Source: a virus
DNA: 12,179 nt
Virus record (IMG/VR): IMGVR_UViG_3300033141_003953
Span: 1-12,179 of that record
Strand: one strand, 5' to 3'
Position numbers and translations under genes: made by a program. This document shows, piece after piece, positions 1 through 12,179 of this stretch; positions within the stretch are counted from its first letter, which is position 1; each line of letters begins with the position of its first letter. The notes under the pieces were generated by a model. The model was given only the letters and a program-made list of their open reading frames with translations. It had not been told where the DNA came from and did not search any database.

Positions 1-114
1 TCATATTAATTTTTCTCCTGCATCTTTCTCAAGATTAGCTTTTAATAACACTAACCCTCTTTTCCAATCTTCTCCCTTTGCATGTTTTTGTTCTTGCTCT
101 AAATCTATAATTCT
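1..114. repeat. Left copy of exact 114-bp terminal direct repeat
   Basis: Bases 1-114 are identical base for base to 12066-12179 (checked by hand). The repeat lies inside the 3' part of the CDS at 1-225, which suggests a circular-assembly overlap or terminal redundancy rather than a dedicated non-coding terminus. Confidence 0.95.
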
Positions 115-225
115 CCTCTTAATAAATTCTTTTACATCTGTCATTAAAAAAATACCATTATCTAATTTTCCATGAGTATAAATGGGTCTGCTCATTCTCT
201 CACTCAAATTAAATTCTTTTTTCAT
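1..225 (-). CDS. Hypothetical protein, 74 aa
   Basis: ORF with ATG at 225 and TGA at 3-1. It starts 1 nt after the stop of the upstream gene (227), which implies coupled translation. No motif recognised. Confidence 0.55.
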   Translation of the reverse strand: MKKEFNLSERMSRPIYTHGKLDNGIFLMTDVKEFIKRRIIDLEQEQKHAKGEDWKRGLVLLKANLEKDAGEKLI

Positions 226-226
226 T

Positions 227-451
227 TTATTTTTTCTCTTCCAGCCATTTAGCTAATCTTTCAAAATAAGAAGCTGCGCTTTCATCTCTTTCAGCTTTAA
301 ATATTCTCTTAATTTTTCTAAAATCTTTAAGATACATTCTAATAACTATTGTCCCTTTACTTATACTTCCCCTGCTTGCTTGTTTAATGCCTTTATTCAT
401 GTTATAACTACGTATAACACCTTTATAAATGTTTCGTTTTTTAACAATCAC
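227..451 (-). CDS. Small basic protein, possible ribbon-helix-helix DNA binder, 74 aa
   Basis: Overlaps the upstream gene by 11 nt. A short beta-like strand (TIVIRMYL) is followed by two helices (KDFRKIKRIFKAE, SAASYFERLAKWLEE), a layout resembling Arc/CopG-type RHH proteins. The function is inference only. Confidence 0.5.
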   Translation of the reverse strand: MIVKKRNIYKGVIRSYNMNKGIKQASRGSISKGTIVIRMYLKDFRKIKRIFKAERDESAASYFERLAKWLEEKK

Positions 452-674
452 TATCAGGTAATAAACCTTTTCTGCCTCTTGTAGCTGGGGATATTAAATA
501 GGTGATATATCTGCAATAATCCCCCTCAACATTATAACATCTTTTTATATGGACATCTGTTGGTCTTAAAGTTACTCGGTGTTTTATACAATATACTGTA
601 TTTCCTTCTGCTTGTTCTACAAGATAGTTCCTTCTTCTTCTTATTCTTTTGATTTGTTTTTTTGTTTTTTTCAT
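441..674 (-). CDS. Very basic Cys/His protein, possible zinc-knuckle nucleic-acid binder, 77 aa
   Basis: The ORF track gives 441..746, but that start overlaps the fibre gene by 65 nt. The ATG at 674 lies 7 nt after the fibre stop (682-684) and gives MKKTKKQIKRIRRRR.... It contains C-x2-H-x9-H-x3-C (CIKH...HIKRC) plus one more Cys. Confidence 0.5.
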   Translation of the reverse strand: MKKTKKQIKRIRRRRNYLVEQAEGNTVYCIKHRVTLRPTDVHIKRCYNVEGDYCRYITYLISPATRGRKGLLPDSDC

Positions 675-681
675 TTTAATT

Positions 682-2229
682 TTAATGGAAGGCAGCCCAA
701 GTTGCTGGGCTTCCCCCTGAAGTGCAACCATAAAATTTATTATCAACTATGTTATATACAATTTCCCCTTCTGTTCCGTCAGTGTTGTTCATTCCTGCGT
801 CTGATACCTGTCTCGGTTTGAATCGTCCTGTGCAGGTGATAGTTTCTGTTGAAGAATTACATAAACTAACGTTTCCGTTTGCAGTAAAATCACCAGCAAG
901 AGTTAAACCTCCTGTTGAAGTGAAGTCTGTCCCTGCATTACCTATGTTTTTAATTCTGTAATTGTTCATATCTAAAGGTCTCCTAAAATCTATATCTCCC
1001 CCTGATTTTCTTGATATTAAAATAGGTGTGTCTATATGTGTTCCATTATCATTTTTTGCAAAAAGCCCAAAATTAGAACCTGCATCGCTTCCGCTTTCTG
1101 CACTATTATTTGCTCCCATTTCCCACCTTAAACTATCGTCTGTTGTCCAGCTTATAACTCTAAAAGTTCCAGCTTCATTTTTTAGTATGAATTTCCCGCC
1201 GTTTGTTGTTAAATCTCCTGTTGTTGTGTCACTTGCATCATTTTTTAAATAATCTGAATGTGCCTGATTATTGTTTGCAAGATGATTATCTATTTCCTGA
1301 TGTGTGTTTGTTCCTATGTTTTGAATTGCTGTATGGTCTATGTCTGTTGTTAAGTTATGAGTATTTGACAGAGAATTGTGATTTATCTCGCTGTCATTTG
1401 TTGAGATATTTGCTCCTGCTATTGTTATTCCTGTTCCTTCTGTTAATTCCTGCTGAAATCCTGTATGTCCTGCACTTGCATAATCTAAATTTGCTAAACT
1501 ATCATGCTGTCTTTGAAATGAAACTCCTCTGACTTCCACCCTTGTTCCTGTTGTTCCTTCCATATAAATATCTATGTTGGTAGCTACTGGGTGAGAATTG
1601 TTTGCATAAACCTTTACAACAATTCTGTCCCCACTGCTTAAAGGATATTCTTCGCTTACTGTAAGGTGGAAATTATGTTCTTCTTCTGTATTTCCTATAA
1701 AATCTGTTAATTCTGTTGTTCCTATTAATGTCTCACTTCCCCCATTATCTCTTACATAGAATTCTCCATAAAATTTTAATCTTCCTGCACTCCCAGCTTT
1801 TAGATGCGCGTGCATTTCATAAACTCCCCTTGTTAAAATTCTTATTAATGCATAAGCGTTATATGAACTTTCTGTTATAAATGAGCCTATTAGATAATTG
1901 TTTGTATTTCCCGGAACTGAATCACTTACAGTTTCTTTTGCTGTTCCATCAATATCTGGCTTCATTGTATAATAGCCTTCAATATCAGAATTTTCTTTAT
2001 ATCCAAATAAATCTATTCCTGTATTTACACTGACATTATCAACATATTCTTTATTTACAATATCCTTTGCACCAGAAATAGTTTGAGTTGTTCCCTGTTG
2101 CATATTTAAGGATTTGACAATATTGTAATCATCCATATTGTCAAAATTTCCTGCTCCTTCTGGTCTATGAAACTTATTTTTTTTGAAGCTTACACCTCTA
2201 AACATTGTCTTATATGGATTCTTTGCCAT
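682..2229 (-). CDS. Fibre / receptor-binding protein, 515 aa
   Basis: Largest ORF. It is Asn/Thr/Gly/Ser-rich and beta-rich. Residues ~240-330 carry repeated His-containing motifs of the kind common in phage tail fibres (HDSLANLDYASAGHTGF, HNSLSNTHNLTTDIDHTAIQNIGTNTHQEIDNHLANNNQAHSDYL). It has its own upstream intergenic region with a TATA-like box. Confidence 0.7.
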   Translation of the reverse strand: MAKNPYKTMFRGVSFKKNKFHRPEGAGNFDNMDDYNIVKSLNMQQGTTQTISGAKDIVNKEYVDNVSVNTGIDLFGYKENSDIEGYYTMKPDIDGTAKETVSDSVPGNTNNYLIGSFITESSYNAYALIRILTRGVYEMHAHLKAGSAGRLKFYGEFYVRDNGGSETLIGTTELTDFIGNTEEEHNFHLTVSEEYPLSSGDRIVVKVYANNSHPVATNIDIYMEGTTGTRVEVRGVSFQRQHDSLANLDYASAGHTGFQQELTEGTGITIAGANISTNDSEINHNSLSNTHNLTTDIDHTAIQNIGTNTHQEIDNHLANNNQAHSDYLKNDASDTTTGDLTTNGGKFILKNEAGTFRVISWTTDDSLRWEMGANNSAESGSDAGSNFGLFAKNDNGTHIDTPILISRKSGGDIDFRRPLDMNNYRIKNIGNAGTDFTSTGGLTLAGDFTANGNVSLCNSSTETITCTGRFKPRQVSDAGMNNTDGTEGEIVYNIVDNKFYGCTSGGSPATWAAFH

Positions 2230-2249
2230 AATAATAAATATATCTAATC

Positions 2250-2257
2250 TTTATAAA
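2250..2257 (-). promoter_or_regulatory. TATA-like octamer TTTATAAA, 20 nt upstream of the fibre ATG
   Basis: Lies in the 85-nt intergenic gap 2230-2314. The same octamer at almost the same spacing precedes the terminase gene. No Shine-Dalgarno lies between the box and the ATG. Confidence 0.35.
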
Positions 2258-2314
2258 TATTTGCAGACCCCTATAACTAAGCCCAATAAATTCAGAGATT
2301 AATTGTTATCAGAA

Positions 2315-2485
2315 TTACGCAGATGTCACAGTTTCAAATGCTGTTCCATTATGAAATACAATTTTTCCACCAGATAGAAATATAGCTCCTGAGATTGTCG
2401 GCTGTAATTTATTATTTGCTCCTGAAATAACCTGAGGCAAAATTAACTCACTTGGAGCGCATACATCACCAATAAGCTCCACCAT
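2315..2485 (-). CDS. Hypothetical small protein, 56 aa (MVELIGDVCAPSELILPQVISGANNKLQ...)
   Basis: Hand-translated ORF below the track cutoff. Its ATG overlaps the upstream stop (TAAATG), and GGGGGA lies ~8 nt upstream as a possible RBS. Confidence 0.5.
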   Translation of the reverse strand: MVELIGDVCAPSELILPQVISGANNKLQPTISGAIFLSGGKIVFHNGTAFETVTSA

Positions 2486-2659
2486 TTATTTTCCCCCTTT
2501 CTTTTTCTTTACTTCTTCTTTTTCTTTAGAATTCTCTAAAAAATATTCAACATCGTACATCTTGCCTGGGTCTTCTGCAATATCAGCAGGTAGATTTCCA
2601 TTTATATCTCTATGGTCCCACCACTTCTTTCCTCTTTGCATTTTTCCTTTGTGTGACAT
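2486..2659 (-). CDS. Hypothetical small charged protein, 57 aa (MSHKGKMQRGKKWWDHRDING...)
   Basis: Hand-translated ORF below the track cutoff. It starts 1 nt after the capsid gene stop and fills otherwise unexplained space in a gene-dense operon. Confidence 0.5.
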   Translation of the reverse strand: MSHKGKMQRGKKWWDHRDINGNLPADIAEDPGKMYDVEYFLENSKEKEEVKKKKGGK

Positions 2660-2660
2660 T

Positions 2661-3530
2661 TTAACTTTGTGTGTTAGTTATTACATAGATAGCTTTTGGG
2701 TCTGTAACTTGTAGATGACCTATTTCCCAGCTTCTAATTGTGAATTTAATTCCTTTATCTTCAATAACTGCAGATGTTAATCCTACTACAGATTTCCATG
2801 TTGCAGCTCTTTGTCCTATGATTATCATTGCTTCGTCGTCTTCAACTGAATTAGTTTTAATTATTGTTAATCCACAGATTTGTCCCACCTTTCCATTAGA
2901 AACAACATCAGCAGTTTTAAAACTTGGATTATTAATTACTTTAGAGTTCATCATTAGATTCCTGTAATCTTTTGGTGATAATAATAAATAACCATTTTCT
3001 TGCGCGTCGTAATTATGTTCATCCATCGCTTGTATTCCAGTTAAAATATCTCTTATTGGGTCTCTATCTGCTACTGTTGCGCTGTCCCATGTTGCAACTG
3101 CAGCTGCAGTTTGTATTCCTGTAGCTCCTGATAATCCTGAATAAATTTGGTCATCTACAGCTTTTGCAATCGCTCTTGCTACTCTTAAAATTGTTCTTGC
3201 CTGAACATCAATAGCATCTGTCAATCTGTCTTCCATAAAGACATGACCTTCTGCTGCATATTTTTCATTTCTTGCAGAATGTTTTGTCCAGCTTGGGTCT
3301 ACATGAGGGAATGCTGCGCCTCTTGGGACTCCTTTAATGTTTAACTGGTCTTTTGCTGTTAAGTCTTCTGGATTTTCCCTATAATATGTTTCTTCCCATG
3401 AACTTGAACTTTGAAGTAATAGAACTTGTTTTAGTTTATATTGCTGTAACGCAAACCCTTTTACAGCTTTTGAAACATTCTCAGCTCTGAGTTCATAATC
3501 GCCCATATTTAAATTTGTTCCTGCTCCCAT
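2661..3530 (-). CDS. Major capsid protein, HK97-fold-like, 289 aa
   Basis: Its position directly after the decoration-like gene (1-nt gap) and its size are typical. A long amphipathic helix, TDAIDVQARTILRVARAIAKAVDDQIYSGL, resembles the HK97 spine helix, and the C-terminal half is beta-rich. No N-terminal delta domain is present, consistent with a separate scaffold gene. Confidence 0.75.
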   Translation of the reverse strand: MGAGTNLNMGDYELRAENVSKAVKGFALQQYKLKQVLLLQSSSSWEETYYRENPEDLTAKDQLNIKGVPRGAAFPHVDPSWTKHSARNEKYAAEGHVFMEDRLTDAIDVQARTILRVARAIAKAVDDQIYSGLSGATGIQTAAAVATWDSATVADRDPIRDILTGIQAMDEHNYDAQENGYLLLSPKDYRNLMMNSKVINNPSFKTADVVSNGKVGQICGLTIIKTNSVEDDEAMIIIGQRAATWKSVVGLTSAVIEDKGIKFTIRSWEIGHLQVTDPKAIYVITNTQS

Positions 3531-3531
3531 T

Positions 3532-3957
3532 TTAACCTAATAATAATTGAACATTTATAACTTCATCTGCAGAACCGTCTTCTAATGCTCTGCCAAATAT
3601 TGCGCCTCCGCTTGCTGTTGGAATGTCTGGTATTGGCGCAACTGTATTTGCTCCACTAATCATTACAAAATCTCCTGCATTTACAGCATTTGTGCATTTT
3701 ATATCAAATATTCCTGTAGTGTAGCATGATATTGTTGTAGAACCATCGTTTGCTTCTTTATCAAAACACGCAACTCCTGCTCCCCTATTGACTATTGCTG
3801 CTCCCGGCGAACTATCGCTTGAATTTATTGCTGTTCTTGGGTCTTGCAATAATAATAAATTGCCCCCTGAGATATGTGTTCCGTCTGCAACAGTGTAAGT
3901 TATAGGGTTTCCACCGTCGGGACCCAAATCAACTGTATATGCTCCTGATAATACCAT
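3532..3957 (-). CDS. DUF2190-like head decoration / capsid cement protein, 141 aa
   Basis: Gly/Ala-rich beta protein immediately upstream of the capsid gene. The layout ...GAGVACFDKEANDGSTTISCYTTGIFDIK...AGDFVMISGANTV...IFGRALEDGSADEVINVQLL matches my recollection of the DUF2190 family consensus (GVA...GvF...Gd.V...iG.Ale...V.V.L). Confidence 0.6.
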   Translation of the reverse strand: MVLSGAYTVDLGPDGGNPITYTVADGTHISGGNLLLLQDPRTAINSSDSSPGAAIVNRGAGVACFDKEANDGSTTISCYTTGIFDIKCTNAVNAGDFVMISGANTVAPIPDIPTASGGAIFGRALEDGSADEVINVQLLLG

Positions 3958-3978
3958 AGCAAAATTAAAAACTTAAAC

Positions 3979-3986
3979 TATTTAAA
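3979..3986 (-). promoter_or_regulatory. TATA-like octamer TTTAAATA, 21 nt upstream of the decoration-gene ATG
   Basis: Read on the minus strand: AAGATTTAAATA + 21 nt + ATG. It overlaps the stop codon of the upstream gene. There is no Shine-Dalgarno. Confidence 0.35.
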
Positions 3987-4323
3987 TCTTTCGTTTATTT
4001 GGTATGCCAAATTTTTCTCTTAGTTCTCCCACAAAAGGATTAAACCTATTGTTAATTTCTGTTTCTATATCTTGGATTCTATATTTATACCATGCTCTTC
4101 CTAGAAGATAACAACCAATTCCATAAAAAATACCGAGAATGAGGGTTTTTTTCACATCTAAACTACTAATCCCAAATAATGCAATCATATATTTTAGATA
4201 TGATGTTAATCCCCATCCTCTATCAAAATAAGCTTTTGCGACTAAAGGTTTAAAAATCTTTCTTTTATCAATTTCATAACCCTTCTGTTCCATCTGGTAA
4301 ATTTTTATCTTCTTTAATTCCAA
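3982..4323 (-). CDS. Small membrane protein with two predicted TM helices, 113 aa
   Basis: Hydrophobic segments LTSYLKYMIALFGISSL and TLILGIFYGIGCYLLGRAW are followed by a charged C-terminus. The real start may be the internal Met at 4293 (MEQKGYEI...), which would cut the overlap with the upstream ORF from 50 to 20 nt. Confidence 0.6.
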   Translation of the reverse strand: MELKKIKIYQMEQKGYEIDKRKIFKPLVAKAYFDRGWGLTSYLKYMIALFGISSLDVKKTLILGIFYGIGCYLLGRAWYKYRIQDIETEINNRFNPFVGELREKFGIPNKRKI

Positions 4324-4765
4324 TTCCTATTTTTTCGACGTTGTTTAGATATAAAGGCAGTCTTTCTATACTTTCTCCGTCATATTTTGGAATTTTTTTT
4401 ATACCTAAAATTTTTCTTAAAATAGTTATGTATTTTTGATGTTTTTTATGTTGTGTTTTTCCTTGATTATTTTCCAATATTGACCTTAACATTAAGTCTT
4501 TATATTCTTTTGGAAAAACAATCTCCCACAGCTGAATTGGTCTGACTGCAACCTGAACCATAGTGTTCTCTCCTCTAAACTTAAACGGCAAATACTTTCC
4601 TCTAAGGTCATTAATAAACCTATCTACGTCGTGTTTTATTCCTCTTGTTATTAGATATAAGTGCATATTAGATGAACAACGGATTTTCTTGCGCATTCTA
4701 AAATCGCATCTTTTGTAAAATTTATATTTACTGATGCGTATTTTGTTCCGGTGGTGATAACCCAA
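4274..4765 (-). CDS. Hypothetical protein, 163 aa as drawn (start uncertain)
   Basis: As drawn, the long ORF overlaps 4651..4866 by 115 nt. Internal starts at 4696 (MRKKIR) or 4666 (MHLYLITRGIKHDV..., 130 aa) are more plausible. No motif recognised. Confidence 0.55.
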   Translation of the reverse strand: MGYHHRNKIRISKYKFYKRCDFRMRKKIRCSSNMHLYLITRGIKHDVDRFINDLRGKYLPFKFRGENTMVQVAVRPIQLWEIVFPKEYKDLMLRSILENNQGKTQHKKHQKYITILRKILGIKKIPKYDGESIERLPLYLNNVEKIGIGIKEDKNLPDGTEGL

Positions 4766-4866
4766 TTAACACCATAGGCAACCCCTAAAATGTATCCAAT
4801 TAAGAACGCAATAATATAACTTGCTATTTTTTCGATTCTTTTTCGGAATTTTCCTCTGCCGGACAT
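4651..4866 (-). CDS. Small membrane protein with one TM helix, 71 aa
   Basis: Basic N-terminus (MSGRGKFRKRIEK) followed by the hydrophobic helix IASYIIAFLIGYILGVAYGVNWVI. Confidence 0.5.
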   Translation of the reverse strand: MSGRGKFRKRIEKIASYIIAFLIGYILGVAYGVNWVITTGTKYASVNINFTKDAILECARKSVVHLICTYI

Positions 4867-4994
4867 TTTTCTAATGCTTGTTTAAATGATTTAAGAACAA
4901 TTTTATGTATTTCTATCCCTTTCTCCATTTTTTTTATTGTTTCCTCTGACGCTTTTATTTCTATTTCTATATCTTTTTTAGATAAAACCATCAT
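4824..4994 (-). CDS. Possible small charged helical protein, 56 aa (MMVLSKKDIEIEIKASEETIKKMEKG...)
   Basis: Hand-translated ORF that fills the 111-nt gap between 4978..5295 and 4651..4866. It overlaps the former by 17 nt and the latter by 43 nt, and ends TCG AAA AAA TAG. Confidence 0.3.
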   Translation of the reverse strand: MMVLSKKDIEIEIKASEETIKKMEKGIEIHKIVLKSFKQALEKCPAEENSEKESKK

Positions 4995-5295
4995 CTTTAA
5001 GTGGATTTGCTTCTCCTGTCATCACTTTTTTTGCATATTCTACATCACTTATAGGTTCTGGTTTTGGAGGTGTTTGTCCTGCTTCACTTTCTCCACCTAA
5101 ACTTTTCCTTGCTAAAATTTCTTCTTCTCTTTTAATTAATTCTTCTTTTTTTGTGTTTGCTTCTTCCAGCCTTTCAGCTGCTTCGTTTGCTCGTCTAATA
5201 ACCTCAATCTCTTCTGGCTTATTCCCATTATCATTTGATTCATCTGCATTCTTTTGTTTTTTTTCTTTCTGTTCTTTTTGCTCATTCATTTCCAT
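4978..5295 (-). CDS. Acidic coiled-coil protein, putative capsid scaffolding protein, 105 aa
   Basis: Extremely Glu/Lys-rich helical sequence (EEIEVIRRANEAAERLEEANTKKEELIKREEEILARK) in the head module. It is preceded by a strong Shine-Dalgarno. The functional call is inference from composition and position. Confidence 0.5.
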   Translation of the reverse strand: MEMNEQKEQKEKKQKNADESNDNGNKPEEIEVIRRANEAAERLEEANTKKEELIKREEEILARKSLGGESEAGQTPPKPEPISDVEYAKKVMTGEANPLKDDGFI

Positions 5296-5303
5296 TATGT
5301 TCT

Positions 5304-5311
5304 ACCTCCTT
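5304..5311 (-). promoter_or_regulatory. Shine-Dalgarno AAGGAGGT, 8 nt before the ATG at 5295
   Basis: Occupies the 16-nt gap after the stop at 5312-5314. The extended 12-mer TGAAAGGAGGTA is identical to the one before the OB-fold gene. Confidence 0.6.
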
Positions 5312-6223
5312 TCACATTCTTTCGAGAATTTGCTTCTCCATTTCTATATTTCTTAATACTGAGTTTCCTGTAGTTTCCATTAAAAACCATAAAGGATATA
5401 ATAAAGGATTTGAAATTGTCGCAGCTCTCAGTGTCCATCTTGCTGCATTTACATCTGAAACCGCAGAGTCTAATTCTGCTAATGCTTCTCCTTGTGATAT
5501 ATTTCCAAACCTTACTTGTGAGGAAATATCTCTCGTATTCATGCTTGCCAGTGTTAATAAATTGTCTCCTGCAAACCATGCTGTTAATATTGTTCCTGTT
5601 TGATGAGCTGCTAATAATGCTTTATGTGATTTTGCAAATGCGAAGCCTGCTTTTAATGCAGATTTTAATCCAAACCTGTTCATATTGCTTACTGTTGCCT
5701 GTGCTTTGATTAATGTTCCTTTTCCCACTTGTGTTCCCATAAATCTTACTCCTGCGGCTTTACCTGCTCCACCTAATAATCTTCCTGCTAATAATGTTCC
5801 TCCTGCAACTGCCCCTGCAAAAGCTGCTGTTCCTAAAACATCTCCTGCTGTTATTCTTCCGCCCCACCATGCTCTTGCCTGCTCTCTTTGCTCTGGAGTT
5901 CCTACACCTGCAGCGCTTAATCCCTTTACTGCTAATTTTCCACCTAATTTAAATGCTGAACTTACTAATGGTATTTTTTTGCCGATTTCTCCGACTTTTT
6001 CAATAAACCCTGTTTTCTTTTCTGCCGGTTTTTTTAAAGGCTTTTCTTCTTTTTTTTCTACTTTTTCTAAAAGACCCCCTCTTGCTAATGCCTCAGTCCT
6101 TCTTTTTGTTTTAATTTTTTTTAATTCTTTTTCCAAATTTTGTCTTTTAAGAGGCTTAGAGCCAAGTTTTTCCTTTACTTCTTCAAATCTTTTTTTTCGT
6201 TTTCCAAAAAGCCATAATGCCAT
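5312..6223 (-). CDS. Hypothetical protein, 303 aa: Lys-rich N-terminus, Gly/Ala-rich hydrophobic core
   Basis: Long ORF between portal and scaffold. The first ~80 residues are highly basic/charged. The core includes GTAAFAGAVAGGTLLAGRLLGGAGKAAG. No catalytic motif recognised. Confidence 0.65.
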   Translation of the reverse strand: MALWLFGKRKKRFEEVKEKLGSKPLKRQNLEKELKKIKTKRRTEALARGGLLEKVEKKEEKPLKKPAEKKTGFIEKVGEIGKKIPLVSSAFKLGGKLAVKGLSAAGVGTPEQREQARAWWGGRITAGDVLGTAAFAGAVAGGTLLAGRLLGGAGKAAGVRFMGTQVGKGTLIKAQATVSNMNRFGLKSALKAGFAFAKSHKALLAAHQTGTILTAWFAGDNLLTLASMNTRDISSQVRFGNISQGEALAELDSAVSDVNAARWTLRAATISNPLLYPLWFLMETTGNSVLRNIEMEKQILERM

Positions 6224-6231
6224 TTTTTATT

Positions 6232-6399
6232 TTATTTTATCTTCGGTGTTGGAATTGTTATGCCTATTGCTCCTGCAATAACAGCTATAACAGTTGTCAG
6301 TATAATACCATCTATTCCTTTAGATAATGCGAACATTTCTAAAGCTGTTATGCAAAATATTCCAGTGCATACAATCCTCCAATCTATTTTTTTCTTCAT
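6232..6399 (-). CDS. Small membrane protein, 55 aa (MKKKIDWRIVCTGIFCITALEMFALSKGIDGIILTTVIAVIAGAIGITIPTPKIK)
   Basis: Hand-translated ORF below the track cutoff. It starts 2 nt after the portal stop (6402-6404) and has two hydrophobic segments. Confidence 0.55.
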   Translation of the reverse strand: MKKKIDWRIVCTGIFCITALEMFALSKGIDGIILTTVIAVIAGAIGITIPTPKIK

Positions 6400-6401
6400 C
6401 A

Positions 6402-7496
6402 TTATTGTCCGCTTCCTGCGGTGGTTTCGTTTGGTTGAATATTAATTGGTTCATCCTTTGCTTTATCTGATAATAAATCGTTTTCTAAACTTGCTGGAAA
6501 TTCAAGCTCAATTTTTAATCCTAATTGCTCCCAGACCTGCTCTTCAACAAATAACTGCTCTTCTTCTATTGTCTGCTGAAATGCTAAATATGCAATTTTT
6601 GCTGTTGCTTCTGTAAATTCTGATGAACTTCCTACTATGATTTGAGGCACTCCTGTCGCCTGAAAGAAATAATTTTTTAATGCTTCAATCCATGGCAGAG
6701 GGTTTAAAGTTGCATTTGTCGGCACAGAAAGTAATTCATGCTCTACTGTCCCTTTTGGGACAAAAATATTCTCTGCGTTTTCTACTGCTTTGTCTGCTTT
6801 TGTTTTAAATGCTGCTATTTCTGCAGTATCGTCGGTATCTAAATGCCAGACAATTCTTGGCACGACATTTCTATGCATTAATTTTTTCATATCAGACATC
6901 GCTTCATTTCTCATTAAAATTATTGTTTCTAATGCTTCAATCATAGATTGCCCATGAATTTCATCTGCCACTCTGTTTCTTGCTAAGTGGAATATATTCT
7001 CTGGATTAAATTTTTTGTTTGGAGATTTTACTTTTGATTTTTGTTCATATCTTTTTATTCTTCCTTGCCTATCTACTACGATTATTATTACTCCGGGGTC
7101 TAATGGTTTAAGATTTAATATGTCCCCCTCATCATTTCTGATTATTTCACAAAAAGCGTCTCCGCCTATATTGTAGGTTCTTATCATATTTTCTATGATT
7201 GTGTTAAATGTATCTTTTCCCCAGCCTGTTATGAAATTTAGGGTTGCTTCTGTTTCTGAGTCTGCTTTAAATCCTTTTCCTACTGTCCATGTTGCTTTTG
7301 CGTCAATAACAGCCTTTAATTCTGGGATTGTTCTGTAATATCCTAAATATTTAGTCCAGTTTGTATTTTCCCATGTTGTTTCATCCTGCTCTGCTGGTCC
7401 ATCTGTTGTTGATACATCTACAGAAAAGTCGCTGACTACTCCTGACATATTTCCGTAGTCTGCTGAACTTATTTTTGTTTCGGGCATTTTAAACAT
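6402..7496 (-). CDS. Portal protein, 364 aa
   Basis: Size, position near the terminase, and sequence blocks resemble HK97-family portals as I recall them (NIGGDAFCEIIRNDEGDILNLKPLDP, FHLARNRVADEIHGQSMIEAL, ATGVPQIIVG...EATAKIAYLAFQQTIEEEQ). The start overlaps the upstream gene by 8 nt. Confidence 0.75.
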   Translation of the reverse strand: MFKMPETKISSADYGNMSGVVSDFSVDVSTTDGPAEQDETTWENTNWTKYLGYYRTIPELKAVIDAKATWTVGKGFKADSETEATLNFITGWGKDTFNTIIENMIRTYNIGGDAFCEIIRNDEGDILNLKPLDPGVIIIVVDRQGRIKRYEQKSKVKSPNKKFNPENIFHLARNRVADEIHGQSMIEALETIILMRNEAMSDMKKLMHRNVVPRIVWHLDTDDTAEIAAFKTKADKAVENAENIFVPKGTVEHELLSVPTNATLNPLPWIEALKNYFFQATGVPQIIVGSSSEFTEATAKIAYLAFQQTIEEEQLFVEEQVWEQLGLKIELEFPASLENDLLSDKAKDEPINIQPNETTAGSGQ

Positions 7497-8352
7497 CTAT
7501 TACAAATGGAACATGGAAAGTTAGTGTTGTCGGTTGTCCATCTTCAATTATTTGAGCAAAGTTAGTCCCTCCTGTATAAGCCCCTGAAATAAATCTATCA
7601 TTTCTATTTGCTGGGTCGTGTGCTATTCCAGCTGAAAATATTTCTGATGGTGCTGTATTTTTAAACCATGCCTCTATAGTAAATCTTAAGATTTCTCCCT
7701 TTTTAAAATGTTGCACTTCTGATAGATTTATTTTAATTAAGGCTGTGTGGCTTTGCAGCTTCCACCAGTCCATATTCATTGCATGAAAATAAACTGATTG
7801 TCCGCTTCCTAATTCTGTTTCTGTTGTTCCATCGTAGTGTTTAGCTGTGACTGTTACATAAAAAGTCACATCTGCCTCATTATTTTCCAGATTTTGAACT
7901 CCTACTGGGACATTTATTATTAAATCTCCTTTGATGTTTTTTGGTGTGTTGAATGTTATATCAAAATCTTCATCTACTAATTTTGTAAAAGAGTTTGCAA
8001 TATCTCCACTTGCAATACCTGATTTTAACCACTCAGAGTAAATTGTTGGCACTGTTGTTACTAATGTCGCTCCACTTGTTCCTCTTGCTCCATAATAAAC
8101 ATCATATCCTACGCCATTCGCTATATCAAAATAATCATAGTTTATTAATTGTTTTCCCGGAGCAAATAATGGCTCTACAGGTCTAATACTTAATTTTTTT
8201 TTAGGAATTTCAGCGGGTTCTGGTTCTGAGAATTCAGCTGGCGGTAGGATTATTGGTGGCGGTTCTAATTTCTTTTTTTTAATTTCGTGCGGGTCTTCTT
8301 CTTCCAGTTCTGGTTCTCTTGCAAATAAATTTGTTCCAAAATTTAAAGCCAT
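7489..8352 (-). CDS. Hypothetical structural-looking protein, 287 aa
   Basis: An acidic, Pro-rich N-terminal linker (EPPPIILPPAEFSEPEPAEIPKKK) is followed by a beta-rich domain. Coupled to its neighbours by 8- and 10-nt overlaps. Confidence 0.6.
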   Translation of the reverse strand: MALNFGTNLFAREPELEEEDPHEIKKKKLEPPPIILPPAEFSEPEPAEIPKKKLSIRPVEPLFAPGKQLINYDYFDIANGVGYDVYYGARGTSGATLVTTVPTIYSEWLKSGIASGDIANSFTKLVDEDFDITFNTPKNIKGDLIINVPVGVQNLENNEADVTFYVTVTAKHYDGTTETELGSGQSVYFHAMNMDWWKLQSHTALIKINLSEVQHFKKGEILRFTIEAWFKNTAPSEIFSAGIAHDPANRNDRFISGAYTGGTNFAQIIEDGQPTTLTFHVPFVIDV

Positions 8353-8789
8353 CTTTTTATTGATAATTCTTTATTTAAATCAGGCAGTTTTCCCTGATTT
8401 CTTTCTGAAAATAAAACTGCATGACCTATATTTAATAATTCTTCATTTATGTTTATTCCCTGATGAATAATTTCTCCTAATATTCTTCCTCTCCTTCCTA
8501 CTCTTTGTTTATCTGGAATAATTTCAACTTTCGCTCCTGACAACCTCTTTTCCAGCCAGTTTCTTGCTTCTTTCCCCCCTTTTTCATTCATTTCTGGAGC
8601 CTGAATTTTTGACAGTCTTATTGGAAAATCAAAATCTCTCTCACTCCATCTTACTCTTATTGTATCTCCATCTATAATTTTTACTACTTCTGCCTGAAAA
8701 TTTTCTGTTATCTGCTTGTGCGGGCTGTCAAAATAATAAATCTGCATTTGGCTGTTTGTTAATTCAGGAAATTTGTTAAAATCATGCAT
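8343..8789 (-). CDS. Staphylococcal-nuclease (thermonuclease, SNase) homologue, 148 aa
   Basis: Aligns by eye to S. aureus nuclease: IDGDT = IDGDT; IRLSKIQAPE vs FRLLLVDTPE; KQRVGRRGRILGEI vs DKYGRGLAYIY; NEELLNIGHA vs NEALVRQGLA. Confidence 0.8.
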   Translation of the reverse strand: MHDFNKFPELTNSQMQIYYFDSPHKQITENFQAEVVKIIDGDTIRVRWSERDFDFPIRLSKIQAPEMNEKGGKEARNWLEKRLSGAKVEIIPDKQRVGRRGRILGEIIHQGININEELLNIGHAVLFSERNQGKLPDLNKELSIKRWL

Positions 8790-9168
8790 CGTCTATAAAA
8801 TCTGTTTGTTTTTTGTCTTTGAGTAATGATAACCCTCTTAATGCTCCGTCTCTTAATACAGTTATCATACTTTCGGCTTCTGCTCTGCTTGTATATCCAG
8901 ACATATCATAGTTAATGCAGTAAATTGCTGCTAAATTGCTGGCAATTTCACTTAATATGTGTTTTACATCTTCGTTTAATGTTGTATATGTGTCGCTGTA
9001 ATTTACTCTTGTCATAGTGTTTATGAATGCTTCTGCTTCATTAATCCACTGAGTTATTAATTCGTCTGGTGTCTGACCGTAGATTGTAGTTCCACCTGTT
9101 AGATTAGAATTTACGTTGCTTCCTGCTTTTACTAAAACAGCTCCGCTTGTTGTCATTATTGCTGCCAT
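8782..9168 (-). CDS. Possible head-tail adaptor (gp6-like connector), 128 aa
   Basis: A helical segment, PDELITQWINEAEAFINTMTRVNY, resembles the conserved N-terminal helix pair of gp6-like connector proteins. It lies directly downstream of the terminase. Function is low-confidence. Confidence 0.45.
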   Translation of the reverse strand: MAAIMTTSGAVLVKAGSNVNSNLTGGTTIYGQTPDELITQWINEAEAFINTMTRVNYSDTYTTLNEDVKHILSEIASNLAAIYCINYDMSGYTSRAEAESMITVLRDGALRGLSLLKDKKQTDFIDDA

Positions 9169-9175
9169 GATTTTT

Positions 9176-10447
9176 TTATGTTATCCATATATTTAAATGT
9201 TTGTCTTTTACACACCAGACAGCTCTTATAAGTGCTTCTGCAATATGTGTATAATTTCCAAAAATTTTTAATTTTCCGTCTTCAGTATATTCATATTGAA
9301 CTGATTTTAAACTATGAAAAATTTCCTCTCTGTTTAAAAAGCTAACTTTTTCTCTTTCCATAAGATTCAACAAATTATTGTATAAATCTTCTTTTAATAA
9401 TTTTTTCCGCCTTTTTTCTTCATTATCTAAACTTCTTCTGGAATTATTAATTGCTTCTACTTTTCTTTTTGTTTGTGGATGGTCCAGCAAACTATCAAAT
9501 ACTCCTACTCCTAATCCTCCATCATCAATATATATTCTTTTATAATTGTTTTTTTTATCTAAAGCAATAATTTCAGTTGTTATTTGGGTTAAAAGCATTT
9601 TAGTGAAAATTTGGCAGTCAAACATAATTAATTCGCCATTTCTTTTTCGTTCAACAGAACAAAAAACTGTTTCATCTCCGCCCATTCTTGCTATATCTAC
9701 TCCTAAAAATTTTTTATAATTTGGAGTATAGTTTTCAGGTGCTATCATTCTTTCTTTTATTAAGTTATCAGGAAAGAATTGTCTTAGTTCATCAACAAAT
9801 TCCCCAAGATATTCCTGTGCGAATTGTAATTTTGTCATCCTTTTCTTTTCTCTTTCTATATTTTCCATCATTCTTTCTTTCATATTTTTTGGTCTTATTT
9901 TTGCTACTTCTGGCGTAGATATGTGAAATTTTTTATAATTTTTATCCTGAAATGATTCATAGAAATAACCCTGTCTGCCAAATGGTGTGCTTAACAGCCA
10001 TATATCCCCACCTGTTGTTGCAAGCATAGGAGTTATTGCTGCCCAAACATCTTCGGGTATAAAGGCGGCTTCATCTACAATCAATAAATCTATTGTGTAT
10101 CCTCTTATTCCGTAACCTGATTCTCCGACTGGCAGGCAGTAAATTGTTGAATTGTTTTTTAATTGTAGTTTGTGTTTTGTTGGTCTGTCTTTTCCAGTTT
10201 TAATAATTTTTTTATCTTTATTATGGATATAGGACAATATTTTTTCAAAAAGAAGTTGTGCTTGTCTTTCAACTTTTGCAACCACCATAATTGTTTTTTC
10301 TGAATTTTTTATTGCGTATTCTCCTGCTTTCATAGAGATTATTGTAGATTTCCCGACTTGTCTCCCAGACCTTAAAGCGATATTTCCATTAGAATTTAAA
10401 ATTTCTTTTTGCCATTTGTCGAGTTTGAAATTAAATATGTTTTTCAT
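9176..10447 (-). CDS. terL: Terminase large subunit, 423 aa
   Basis: Walker A RSGRQVGKST; Walker B IDLLIVDEAAF; coupling motif LSTP; RNase-H-like nuclease acidic motifs LGVDIARMGGDETV and IYIDDGGLGVGV. Confidence 0.9.
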   Translation of the reverse strand: MKNIFNFKLDKWQKEILNSNGNIALRSGRQVGKSTIISMKAGEYAIKNSEKTIMVVAKVERQAQLLFEKILSYIHNKDKKIIKTGKDRPTKHKLQLKNNSTIYCLPVGESGYGIRGYTIDLLIVDEAAFIPEDVWAAITPMLATTGGDIWLLSTPFGRQGYFYESFQDKNYKKFHISTPEVAKIRPKNMKERMMENIEREKKRMTKLQFAQEYLGEFVDELRQFFPDNLIKERMIAPENYTPNYKKFLGVDIARMGGDETVFCSVERKRNGELIMFDCQIFTKMLLTQITTEIIALDKKNNYKRIYIDDGGLGVGVFDSLLDHPQTKRKVEAINNSRRSLDNEEKRRKKLLKEDLYNNLLNLMEREKVSFLNREEIFHSLKSVQYEYTEDGKLKIFGNYTHIAEALIRAVWCVKDKHLNIWIT

Positions 10448-10468
10448 AGTTTAGTGTTGTTTAGTAAG

Positions 10469-10476
10469 TTTATAAA
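10469..10476 (-). promoter_or_regulatory. TATA-like octamer TTTATAAA preceded by an A-run, 21 nt upstream of the terL ATG
   Basis: Read on the minus strand: ACAAAAAAATTTTATAAA + 21 nt + ATG. There is no Shine-Dalgarno. Confidence 0.4.
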
Positions 10477-10547
10477 ATTTTTTGTGGAGTTCTGAGTTAT
10501 ACAAAACACAGGAACGAACAATAATCGCTAATAACAATACACAAACA

Positions 10548-10573
10548 AGCGAGCGAGCGAAGCGAGCGAGCGA
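10548..10573. repeat. Tandem duplication of AGCGAGCGAGCGA
   Basis: The 13-mer occurs at 10548-10560 and again at 10561-10573. It is followed by the self-complementary GCGCGC-ACGAG-GCGCGC at 10576-10592. Confidence 0.9.
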
Positions 10574-10600
10574 TGGCGCGCACGAGGCGCGCAACACGGA

Positions 10601-10705
10601 ATGTAATGCGCGAACGTAGTGAGCGCGTATTGTTTTATGTAATGCGCGAACGTCTTTAGTAAATGTAATTTCGTGAGCGTGTATTGTTTTATGTAATCTG
10701 AACGT
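10601..10705. repeat. Iteron-like direct repeat array
   Basis: ATGTAAT occurs at 10601, 10637, 10663 and 10691. The 17-mer ATGTAATGCGCGAACGT is exact at 10601-10617 and 10637-10653. The 25-mer GTGAGCG(C/T)GTATTGTTTTATGTAAT occurs at 10619-10643 and 10673-10697 with one mismatch. Confidence 0.85.
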
Positions 10706-10793
10706 AGCGAAAGACTTATAATGTTTCGTTTGTTTCACTATACGCGGACGAAACTTTATATGTCTTTCTCTACGTGAGTATTTGTTTCACGTC

Positions 10794-10893
10794 GCATTAC
10801 AAAACATAAATTTTAAATACTTGGAACGCTTAGAATTTGCAAAGCAAATTCTAAGTTAATAATAGTGGAAAGTTTTAGGTTGTTTTGTAATGC
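10794..10893. repeat. Nested inverted repeats: 13-bp arms flanking a perfect 12-bp-stem hairpin
   Basis: GCATTACAAAACA (10794-10806) is the exact reverse complement of TGTTTTGTAATGC (10881-10893). Between them, CTTAGAATTTGC-AAA-GCAAATTCTAAG (10829-10855) forms a perfect hairpin. Confidence 0.9.
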
Positions 10894-10940
10894 AAAGAAA
10901 TTAGAAACATTTAAATAGTATGTTTTCTTGTCTCTCTTAT

Positions 10941-11066
10941 ATGCGCTTCGATACGAGTAAGTTTCTCGTCTATCAAAAGCCAGTGACAGAAGGCATAGCA
11001 GGGACGGTTCGTAACTATACTTCTTCACTGACTTTTTACGTAAAACGTTCTATACTTACTCTCTGA
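10941..11066 (+). CDS. Speculative 41-aa micro-ORF (MRFDTSKFLVYQKPVTEGIAGTVRNYTSSLTFYVKRSILTL)
   Basis: The ATG lies 23 nt downstream of a plus-strand TTTAAATA (10910-10917), and the ORF ends 17 nt before the 11084 ORF. No other support. Confidence 0.2.
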   Translation: MRFDTSKFLVYQKPVTEGIAGTVRNYTSSLTFYVKRSILTL

Positions 11067-11083
11067 AAAACACAGACAGAGAA

Positions 11084-11296
11084 ATGAAATACATAGAAAT
11101 AAAACAAATTGTGAAACTTCTAAACGGCAAGGACATTAAAATAGAAGGTGAAACTTTTTCTCTTAAATCTATGGCAGGATGGTATAAACTTAAAAGGAGA
11201 CATCACTGCATTTTAGAAGAAGGTGAGCAATTAGAAGAAGTGAAAGAAAAAGAAAGAATAGAAATGAATAAAAAATTAAATTTCTCCAGCCTTTAA
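11084..11296 (+). CDS. Hypothetical protein, 70 aa; the only plus-strand ORF of at least 60 aa that I accept
   Basis: ORF diverging from the non-coding region. Its 3' end overlaps the convergent minus-strand gene by 21 nt. No motif recognised. Confidence 0.45.
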   Translation: MKYIEIKQIVKLLNGKDIKIEGETFSLKSMAGWYKLKRRHHCILEEGEQLEEVKEKERIEMNKKLNFSSL

Positions 11297-11461
11297 CAAC
11301 ATTTCAAATATTTCCCTGCCTTTTTGTTCAGTTGAGTTTCTTTGATAAGCAAATTGTGCAAATAGTTTCTTTTTATCTATTTCCTTTCCTTCTTCCTGCA
11401 CCTTTCTGCATATCTGCTTCATCCACTCAACATTTTCTCTTCTTGATTTTGTTGTTCCCAT
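11276..11461 (-). CDS. Small protein, possible winged-helix/HTH DNA binder, 61 aa
   Basis: Short helical protein (KLFAQFAYQRNSTEQKGREIFEMLLKAGEI) typical in size and pattern of small viral wHTH regulators. Inference only. Confidence 0.45.
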   Translation of the reverse strand: MGTTKSRRENVEWMKQICRKVQEEGKEIDKKKLFAQFAYQRNSTEQKGREIFEMLLKAGEI

Positions 11462-11524
11462 TTTCTTAATTTAAACAGGGGGTATGGACGCATTTGAATA
11501 ATCCCCCCCTGTGAATATACAATT

Positions 11525-11944
11525 TCAATTAAAAGCTTCCTGTGCCTGCTTTACAACTTTGATAGATTCTGCCATTATTTTCTCATTACTTTCATCTAAA
11601 TCGAATAATCCTCTTATTACTGTAAATATTTCAGTTGCCAGCCCAACAGGGTCTTTAGGATATGTTTTCGCTTCAATAGAGCCATTCTGAGCCACTTTCT
11701 TTACTTCTTCAATATCATTACCCTCTATTTTCTCCATTTCTTTCATATCGAAGTATCCATCTTCGTTTATCTCTCCCTTTATCAATACTGCATCACCCGG
11801 CTTGTGATTTGTTGCGTGTTTTTTATCAAATGTAGAATAATTTTTCCCATTAACAATAAAAACCCATCTTGTGTATGGCTTTCCGTTTTTGCCGACTCCT
11901 GAACTCATATCAACTTTTTCAATAATTCCTTTTATTGTTTCCAT
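11525..11944 (-). CDS. OB-fold-like protein, possible ssDNA-binding protein, 139 aa
   Basis: The N-terminal ~70 residues have a beta-rich pattern (GKNGKPYTRWVFIVNGKNYSTFDKK...PGDAVLIKGEI) resembling small OB-fold SSBs, with an acidic/helical C-terminal tail. Preceded by a strong Shine-Dalgarno. Confidence 0.5.
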   Translation of the reverse strand: METIKGIIEKVDMSSGVGKNGKPYTRWVFIVNGKNYSTFDKKHATNHKPGDAVLIKGEINEDGYFDMKEMEKIEGNDIEEVKKVAQNGSIEAKTYPKDPVGLATEIFTVIRGLFDLDESNEKIMAESIKVVKQAQEAFN

Positions 11945-12065
11945 GTTTACCTCCTTTCATTTTCATTCGAATATTACAAAGGGGCTACTCGGAATTACGC
12001 TTTTATGAAGAGTAATGTAGACTACATTTTAGAACATCTTAGCAACCACTTCGCCCCTTTGACTA
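11945..12065. promoter_or_regulatory. Intergenic control region with nested palindromes
   Basis: CAAAGGGGC (11977-11985) pairs with GCCCCTTTG (12053-12061). A central palindrome, AATGTAG-A-CTACATT, lies at 12014-12028. Confidence 0.45.
11949..11956 (-). promoter_or_regulatory. Shine-Dalgarno AAGGAGGT, 4 nt before the ATG at 11944
   Basis: Read on the minus strand: TGAAAGGAGGTAAAC ATG. The 12-mer is the same as at 5303-5314. Confidence 0.6.
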
Positions 12066-12179
12066 TCATATTAATTTTTCTCCTGCATCTTTCTCAAGAT
12101 TAGCTTTTAATAACACTAACCCTCTTTTCCAATCTTCTCCCTTTGCATGTTTTTGTTCTTGCTCTAAATCTATAATTCT
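12066..12179. repeat. Right copy of exact 114-bp terminal direct repeat (re-presents the 3' end of the CDS at 1-225)
   Basis: Identical to 1-114. Confidence 0.95.

Follow-up and report, generated by a model that had tools for sequence, protein, structure and literature searches.

Which function is served by the short repeats that lie immediately upstream of the large terminase gene (terL) in a very small tailed virus? The window analysed here is the whole of a 12,179-nucleotide (nt) stretch, positions 1 to 12,179 of IMG/VR virus record IMGVR_UViG_3300033141_003953, and the element in question is a repeat array at positions 10601-10791. An initial annotation took the array for iteron-like repeats and proposed a replication origin or a packaging-recognition site. 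Here, we describe the array and its surroundings, together with 87 related loci (L numbers) that were fetched and turned so that terL reads on the plus strand. The repeats do form a family built on one motif, as had been proposed, inside the genome's only large non-coding region. Tentatively, we read the array as several binding sites for a single DNA-binding protein, multiplied by recent duplication within a region that combines origin and promoter; protein binding, the identity of the binder and origin activity in the window genome are each what we infer. The array is lineage-specific and a fairly ordinary kind of feature, namely duplicated protein-binding sites in a viral control region.

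Repeat array and inverted-repeat cassette

The heptamer ATGTAAT occurs at 10601, 10637, 10663 and 10691, all on the plus strand, so that four of the six copies in the window (3.4 expected) fall within 97 nt. An exact 17-mer pair (10601-10617 and 10637-10653), a 25-mer pair with one mismatch (24/25; 10619-10643 and 10673-10697, 54 nt apart) and more degenerate copies (TTTGTTTCAC at 10729-10738 and 10781-10790, GTGAGTATTTGTTT at 10774-10787) were likewise found where the initial annotation had placed them. Dinucleotide-preserving shuffles of 10601-10791 (2000 in all) gave exact direct repeats of at most 16 nt (17 observed) and one-mismatch repeats of at most 18 nt (25 observed); not one of them reached either observed length.

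Repeat search, shuffles and alignment delimit a tandem duplication block on the plus strand at 10601-10700. Unit 1 spans 10601-10636 (36 nt), unit 2 (10637-10690, 54 nt) equals unit 1 plus 18 inserted nt, and a partial unit 3 begins at 10691 and decays. Spacing is uneven, with intervals of 36, 26 and 28 nt between successive ATGTAAT copies. Alignment of the copies gives a shared site of about 22 nt, TGTTTT(A)TGTAATGCG..ACGT. It is present in full on the plus strand as copy c1, TATTGTTTTATGTAATGCGCGAACGT (10628-10653), and copy c2, TATTGTTTTATGTAATCTGAACGT (10682-10707), 54 nt from c1, and as plus-strand half copies at 10601-10617 (ATGTAATGCGCGAACGT, which is without the TGTTTT part) and 10663-10669 (ATGTAAT). 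Overlapping the end of c2 is a long imperfect inverted repeat (10702-10775, 74 nt overall) that the initial annotation did not list, with 28-nt arms (10702-10729 and 10748-10775) that are 89% complementary around an 18-nt centre. It could form a hairpin on either strand, and since its mismatches are C/T, T/T and T/T they carry no strand information.

Next to the array lies a nested inverted-repeat cassette (10794-10893, plus strand), whose 13-nt outer arms, GCATTACAAAACA (10794-10806) and TGTTTTGTAATGC (10881-10893), are 100% complementary. Alignment supports the earlier observation that the motif at the array junctions recurs, with a one-base difference, as these arms. The shared site is longer than the arm itself and aligns the array copies with the left arm on the minus strand, where it forms inverted copy c4, TTTATGTTTTGTAATGCGACGTGAAA (10785-10809), whose likeness to the array copies reaches into GCG..ACGT. 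The right arm is plus-strand copy c3, AGGTTGTTTTGTAATGC (10878-10893), which aligns with the arm of L006, and a degenerate copy at 10899-10911 is inverted relative to c3. Enclosed by the arms are a TATA-like sequence, TAAATTTTAAATA (10807-10819), and, after an 11-nt spacer, the palindrome CTTAGAATTTGC-AAA-GCAAATTCTAAG (10829-10855). The 74 nt between the arms have 25.7% GC (genome 33.7%). Copies c4 and c3 thus flank 26%-GC DNA, a geometry of inverted sites around an AT-rich segment that is built from the window's own motif; the same 74 nt can also be read as a TATA box plus operator. The full order is direct copy, direct copy, hairpin, inverted copy, AT-rich cassette, direct copy. The distance from the terL start codon to the array block upstream of it is 154-344 nt, and a conserved module occupies the interval.

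Conserved and variable parts of the gap

The array and cassette stand in the window's largest non-coding stretch, 10448-11083 (about 640 nt), between terL and a plus-strand open reading frame (ORF) of 70 amino acids (aa). Full-length relatives have an ORF-free gap of 550-750 nt located 0-1000 nt upstream of terL. Nearest to terL, nhmmer and alignment identify a family-conserved non-coding module, module-3 (10467-10593, minus strand in the window), which nhmmer found in 37 loci, every time upstream of terL and in the terL sense. Across the family it is made up of C-rich or CTCGC repeats, then an invariant TTAGCGA(G/T)T box with a T/G-rich spacer on either side, then AGGA.CCCAG.CAAAATTTT and an A/T-rich run. 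In the window these appear as a GCGCGC hairpin (10576-10592), (CGCT)3T(CGCT)3 (10547-10573), the box TTAGCGATTATTG (10519-10531) between two T/G-rich spacers, CAGAACTCCAC (10484-10494) and CAAAAAATTTTATAAA (10469-10484). The module stops 20 nt short of the terL ATG, and there is no Shine-Dalgarno sequence. Long-range pairing of the invariant GCGA(G/T) box with upstream CTCGC/ATCGC repeats was considered and rejected, there being no covariation.

Upstream of module-3 nothing aligns between lineages. The closest TerL relative, L004 (72%), offers just 226 nt upstream of terL for comparison, and the closest relative with sequence for the array region is L005-L007 (TerL 68% identical). By blastn, the window and L005-L007 align there in just three places, the gene for a 61-aa protein, the cassette, and a second non-coding block at 10975-11064 (E = 0.029); the window carries a direct repeat, CTATACTT(C/A).TC.CTGA, at 11015-11031 and 11050-11066. 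The cassette (window 10795-10900, L006 8244-8339) shows paired changes in L006, where each arm is one A/T shorter and each half of the palindrome differs (GC...GC to GT...AC). Its inner palindrome is also found in L077, with a paired one-base deletion and different arms. A scan of viral contigs with the palindrome TAGAATTTG..CAAATTCTA returned 70 unrelated AT-rich matches (L088-L157), which were discarded as candidates and served as a background set thereafter. ATGTAAT was rejected as a family-wide motif, not being enriched in the gaps of the relatives. Upstream of its conserved cassette, L006 carries a five-copy 9-nt tandem repeat (GATAATAGG-like, 7760-7805) and a second large nested palindrome (TTACTTCCTAAA...AGAATTATATAG...ACACGTG..., 7824-7930).

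Symmetry is a general property of the gap. Perfect palindromes (arms of 9 bp or more, centre of 7 nt or less) have 14 times the density in the gap (38 in 29.8 kb) that they have elsewhere (34 in 381 kb), and many of those in the gap have centres of 0-3 nt. The segment 10574-10900 folds far better than shuffled sequence on both strands (z = -7.2 and -6.0), and the same holds, again for both strands, for the 440 nt ending at the start of module-3 in the window and in 15 relatives, with no consistent strand preference (6/16, mean difference +1.3 kcal/mol); in all, seventeen regions behave in this way. Strong folding without strand bias points to dyad sites in duplex DNA or to hairpins on either strand and argues against a strand-specific RNA, and it argues for a gap that acts at the DNA level.

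We therefore regard it as highly improbable that transcription of the region yields a functional structured RNA, a mini-CRISPR array or an RNA anti-CRISPR. Its folding potential would suit such a product, the upstream TATA box of most relatives points into the hairpin-rich stretch, and 25-nt repeats 29 nt apart look superficially CRISPR-like. However, the 29-nt "spacer" (10644-10672) repeats GCGCGAACGT and ATGTAAT from its flanks, which indicates tandem duplication and not a repeat-spacer architecture. Against an RNA also stand the missing strand advantage across 16 lineages, the lack of conservation upstream of module-3, the window's conserved promoter, which points away from the array, and the short palindrome centres, which fit duplex DNA sites better than RNA hairpins. 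Rfam returned just a chance-level match in the array region, mir-2831 (E = 0.18) on the 10702-10775 hairpin, and nothing at gathering score in 26 relatives.

Candidate promoters and operators

In seven relatives (L006, L010, L016, L032, L051, L077 and L087) an exact archaeal-type TATA box (TTTATATA, TTTAAATA or TTTATAAA) is followed, at 10-13 nt from its end and in the terL sense, by a perfect palindrome. The window is the eighth lineage with this geometry, its TATA-like box TTTTAAATA (10811-10819) being followed after 11 nt by TAGAATTTGC, on the plus strand and so directed away from terL, towards the 70-aa ORF. Archaeal promoter spacing would put the transcription start inside the palindrome, the usual position of a repressor. 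The left arm of the cassette, which carries the motif, directly abuts the TATA-like box in the window and in L006. Outside the gap, 5 of the 34 palindromes also belong to such pairs, and TATA-plus-palindrome therefore looks like a general promoter design in these genomes. All promoters were assigned by consensus alone, and AT-rich DNA has many TATA-like strings. Bacterial sigma-70 promoters and intrinsic terminators were not enriched.

These observations make a purely transcriptional role a serious rival. In it, the motif copies are operators through which a small viral regulator controls two divergent promoters, that of terL (about 10469-10484, minus strand) and the TATA-plus-palindrome (10807-10855, plus strand), and replication is specified elsewhere. 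The array lies between these two promoters, which are about 340 bp apart, and a helix-turn-helix (HTH)-like protein is encoded nearby; the TATA-palindrome geometry in eight lineages, with its classical repressor position, its recurrence outside the gap and the abutting arm also fit. The origin recognition boxes (described below) and AT-rich tracts in the gaps of relatives are left unexplained, however, as is a 14-fold excess of palindromes spread over several hundred nucleotides, and the promoters are consensus assignments in AT-rich DNA. We consider this explanation possible, with clearly less in its favour than binding sites in a combined origin and promoter region.

The 61-aa protein (11276-11461, minus strand) is the candidate reader of the motif. 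Its gene was one of three small genes that the initial annotation had named as coding for DNA-binding-looking proteins, and its model (predicted local distance difference test score, pLDDT, 89) is a predicted three-helix bundle whose top structural matches are all DNA-bound winged-helix (WH) or HTH domains (KAT6A WH, DtxR/MntR, the C-terminal WH of MCM, Lrp and DeoR). The prediction agrees with the earlier suggestion for this protein, though the structural matches all fall short of statistical significance. Homologues among the relatives are just those of L005-L007 (59%) and, distantly, L058 (30%), and a separate homologue search returned the query alone. Arms of the form CATTACAAA(A)CA occur together with the protein in the window and L005-L007, and L077, with its different arms, is without it. 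Homology to a 59-aa ORF upstream of terL in L002, suggested by eye, was rejected for want of BLASTP support.

Two further ORFs flank this gene. The 70-aa ORF (11084-11296, AlphaFold2 pLDDT 73) is the only plus-strand gene candidate and is divergent from terL; the AT skew changes sign at it, and it has no homologue in the relatives. A 139-aa protein (11525-11944, minus strand) is kept in L004 and L005-L007 (38% identity) and has no Pfam or PHROG match; by eye, its N-terminal half is OB-fold-like, and it might bind single-stranded DNA. Between the 139-aa and 61-aa genes lies a hairpin of a G-run and a C-run (CAGGGGG...24 nt...CCCCCTG, 11476-11512), and L002 (about 100-130) and L004 (about 11295-11350) have similar G6-7...C6-7 hairpins at the corresponding place.

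Evidence on a possible replication origin

The origin recognition boxes (ORB) 1-3 and mini-ORB of Pyrococcus furiosus share a core, ATTTCCACTGGA(A/G), with invariant TTCC and GAA (PMC1904270). Exact cores matching it, TTCCA[C/G]TGGAA, were found in L021, L023, L048, L070 and L167. Seven of the eight non-redundant exact cores lie within 1300 nt upstream of terL, a zone that makes up 13% of the sequence (P = 4e-6), and in the three lineages whose sequences were read (L023, L048 and L167) the boxes are in the non-coding region adjoining module-3. L023 has two (T/C)TCCACTGGAAATGTAGGT copies just downstream of module-3, followed by (GA)n and (TA)n tracts; L048 carries ATTTCCACTGGAAC; and in L167 three boxes come after an AT-rich stretch, upstream of module-3, which is the position of the window's array. 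Because such cores lie upstream of terL in five lineages, an origin function for the region is plausible, and by this analogy the region as a whole is most likely a replication origin combined with divergent promoters. Two side observations concern ORB-like sequence. The end of module-3 reads AGGA.CCCAG(A/C)(C/G)AAAATTTT, and its CCCCAGAG part resembles by eye the C-string/AGAG portion of Pyrococcus ORB1/ORB2 (CCCCCCAGAGTTTCATTTCC). The nearest ORB-like string in the window is a dyad, TTCTAATGGAAAT / TTCCATTAGAATT (10382-10396, 2-3 mismatches), which lies inside terL, about 55 nt from its start, and is probably a coding coincidence.

In our preferred reading, one sequence-specific DNA-binding protein would occupy all copies of the motif, and this binder could be a host initiator or the 61-aa HTH-like protein encoded nearby. 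The two inverted copies that bracket the AT-rich cassette would form the functional core, serving DNA opening, promoter control or both, and the duplicated array copies would add cooperative or auxiliary binding. The array itself may be a recent, lineage-specific elaboration of the origin/promoter region, situated in the fast-evolving half of the gap.

Several results weigh against this reading. The window gap (10448-11083) has no ORB-like box, none of the 21 matches in the window at up to 3 mismatches falling there, and origin function in the window is suggested solely by positional analogy. The array is absent from the closest relative with data for the region, L005-L007, where unrelated hairpins stand in its place; the initial annotation had treated relatives without an array at this position as evidence against its proposal, and L005-L007 bear that out in part, having the cassette and no array. 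The proposed origin function thus receives partial support, by analogy only. The copies had been described as phased, yet their spacings (36, 26, 28 and 54 nt) are irregular and show no helical phasing. GC skew, which the initial annotation had proposed as a check, is uninformative because nearly all genes are on one strand. Pfam and PHROGs searches of the window ORFs found no initiator gene, and no Rep, primase, helicase or polymerase domain was detected even at lenient thresholds. Long, near-identical units are also expected from recent neutral duplication, and the TATA-palindrome geometry of the cassette is explained equally well by a plain regulated promoter. As for the 61-aa protein, its best structural match has E = 0.75, and its co-occurrence with the motif, in two lineages only, is a hint.

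Bolder versions can be framed. The gap may be a minimal, Rep-less archaeal viral replicon in which the 61-aa HTH protein would read TGTTTT(A)TGTAATGC, replacing the ORB/Orc1 recognition of sister lineages and recruiting host MCM loading; or the family-wide, hypervariable, palindrome-dense stretch between the operator-controlled promoter and module-3 may be a new fast-evolving cis element or RNA whose diversification drives breaks in metagenome assembly. We give these proposals little credence.

Duplication, contig ends and packaging

Duplication is frequent in this region at both strain and lineage level, as L025/L027, L068 and L008 indicate. Over the aligned gap the only difference between L025 and L027 is an 18-nt tandem duplication within the module-3 spacer, and other lineages have gap arrays of their own, three copies of a 12-mer in L008 and four to five copies of a 14-mer in L068. 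Just upstream of the gap, L025 (440-520) and L027 (1-90) also carry unequal numbers of copies of a 21-nt tandem repeat (gagagcgttaaagccaaggtt), which is possibly coding. Since the composite units of the window's array are long and near-identical, they point to recent duplication rather than to a long-maintained array.

The second serious rival follows from this, namely that the array is neutral slippage or tandem duplication in a hypervariable stretch and that just the cassette and module-3 are functional. The copies are indeed long and nearly identical (17/17 and 24/25) in contiguous units of 36 and 54 nt, the surrounding sequence is unalignable even at 68% TerL identity, the L025/L027 difference is of the same kind, and the crowding of contig starts described below is as for a polymorphic, hard-to-assemble stretch. 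However, the duplicated unit holds the same site as the conserved cassette arms, so that duplication has multiplied a probable binding site; a tightly packed 12-kb genome is unlikely to tolerate much junk; and other lineages independently carry arrays of 3-5 copies in the region. On balance we consider neutral origin rather unlikely.

Twelve of the 37 module-bearing contigs (L012, L061, L003, L065, L020, L026, L048, L059, L037, L018, L004 and L030) start within 150 nt of the conserved GCGA box, 33-147 nt upstream of it. Over the contigs that start upstream of the module-3 box, the distance varies from 33 to 187 nt. The stretch upstream of module-3 is thus an assembly-break hotspot rather than a fixed genome end. 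The contig-start zone has C-rich (CCCA)n, CTCGC and hairpin sequence, whose opposite strand would be G-quadruplex-prone; hypervariability, sequencing difficulty and physical ends are candidates for the cause of the breaks. Physical genome ends at the region were considered and are unsupported, the contig starts being at variable positions.

Just upstream of the terminase gene is the classical position of cos and pac sites, such as the lambda cosB R-sites and the SPP1 pac boxes. The repeats might accordingly be terminase-recognition sites of the pac or cosB-like type, with packaging initiated just upstream of terL, as the initial annotation had suggested, and the clustering of relatives' contig ends just upstream of module-3 would agree with this. 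Against it, the contig starts show no fixed end, and complete genomes come out of assembly as circles with arbitrary breakpoints, the terminal overlap of the window lying inside a gene. No small terminase subunit (TerS) or other recognisable recognition subunit was found among the window ORFs by Pfam and PHROGs, lenient thresholds included, so the initial annotation was right to see neither a Rep nor a small terminase gene. A site linked to TerL should also co-vary with it. The TerL proteins of the family share about 60-70% identity, yet conservation does not extend to the array; module-3 would suit this role better. The packaging proposal thus finds no specific support, and we consider it, like an RNA product, unlikely.

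Genome, virus family and host

The two ends of the window are identical, an exact 114-nt direct repeat (1-114 and 12066-12179) inside a gene for a 74-aa protein (1-225, minus strand). Because this exact terminal overlap falls inside a gene, the window is taken as a complete genome, assembled as a circle of about 12,065 bp and near in size to the smallest known tailed-virus genomes. The minus strand carries nearly all of its genes, which encode a large terminase subunit (terL, 9176-10447, minus strand, 423 aa, start codon at 10447), an adaptor, a staphylococcal-nuclease homologue, a portal, a cement protein, an HK97-type major capsid protein and a fibre-like protein. At E < 1e-20, more than 2900 relatives of TerL were found; many of them lie on contigs of 11-13.7 kb, of which several show terminal overlaps of the assembler type. 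This family of tailed viruses of about 12 kb is very abundant and essentially undescribed, lies at the lower size limit for tailed viruses, and encodes no replication proteins.

The host of the family is probably archaeal. ORB boxes, TATA boxes and TerL affinities are evidence for archaeal hosts; among isolates, the closest TerL belongs to haloarchaeal virus HGTV-1 (33% identity, E = 4e-53), and those of bacterial phages reach at most 27%. Metagenome-assembled genome bins say little on the host because they are inconsistent, including Heimdallarchaeota, Nanoarchaeota, Pacearchaeota and Methanomicrobia but also Saccharibacteria, Bacteroidota and Planctomycetia. The Verdandiviruses, tailed viruses of Asgard archaea, likewise lack replication genes and have the cement gene upstream of the capsid gene; they were rejected as the same group since their genomes are 19-20 kb.

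No tRNA genes were detected in the window or 23 relatives. L004 (11339-11386) and L030 (11091-11168; GGACGGT...GTGGGTTCGAATCCCACACCGTCC) contain tRNA-like fragments, each an acceptor-like stem and a GGTTCGAATCC T-arm, at which ARAGORN calls no tRNA and which the window is without; they could be attP-like remnants or tRNA-like elements. At window positions 9160-9240 (minus strand) there is a sub-threshold Rfam match to RAGATH-12 (36.6 bits, gathering score 75, E = 1.8e-4). The "unpaired conserved" 5' half of RAGATH-12 reads in frame as A-L-I-(R/G)-x-V-W, i.e. the invariant C-terminus of TerL (EALIRAVWC). Judged from this match, RAGATH-12 appears to have been built on the terL 3' end and the terL/adaptor junction of the window's virus family, and may be largely a protein-coding signal. 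No mention of RAGATH-12 was found in the literature.

More useful than the array itself is its context, the cis-acting centre of this virus family. Module-3, the TATA-plus-palindrome cassettes and the ORB boxes of sister lineages offer testable handles on how viruses this small engage the replication machinery of the host and how their structural operon is turned on.

Comparison with known systems

Among packaging sites, lambda cosB (R1-R3) and the SPP1 pacL/pacR boxes resemble the window in having short, imperfect repeats directly upstream of a terminase gene. In contrast to them, the window has no small terminase, with terL directly following its promoter and no TerS between, no evidence of fixed termini, and repeats that are not conserved alongside TerL.

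The iterons of theta replicons (lambda ori, P1 oriR, P4 ori/crr, RK2 and pPS10) are direct repeats of about 20 nt next to AT-rich DNA in the control region of a small replicon, with extra site clusters at a distance, as in P4 crr, and in these respects the window is alike. It differs in having just two full direct copies plus halves, where iterons number three or more tandem repeats of 17-22 bp, in its irregular spacing (36 and 54 nt, not about 22 nt or multiples of 11), in the lack of a Rep gene and in the absence of the array from the nearest relative with data. The label iteron-like is thus fair as an analogy; iteron phasing, a Rep gene and conservation do not go with it.

Repeated operators of an archaeal virus regulator are found at the early promoters of SSV1, where they are the sites of F55. 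Like these, the window combines a gene for a small, putatively DNA-binding viral protein with repeated sites at or upstream of TATA promoters and an operator palindrome over the expected transcription start. Unlike them, its sites extend to more than 200 bp from the promoter in surroundings unusually rich in palindromes.

Archaeal origins with ORB and mini-ORB sites bound by Orc1/Cdc6, such as Pyrococcus oriC (PMC1904270), share with the window several copies of a site in both orientations and an inverted pair around an AT-rich segment (74 nt, 26% GC). The window's TGTTTT(A)TGTAATGC is without the invariant ORB features (the TTCC...GAA dyad and the G-string), and no orc1/cdc6 gene adjoins the region. 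The ORB dyad core (ATTTCCACTGGAA-like) is missing from the window gap and present in L021, L023, L048, L070 and L167, relatives of the window in which exact ORB cores stand upstream of terL, mostly in the non-coding region.

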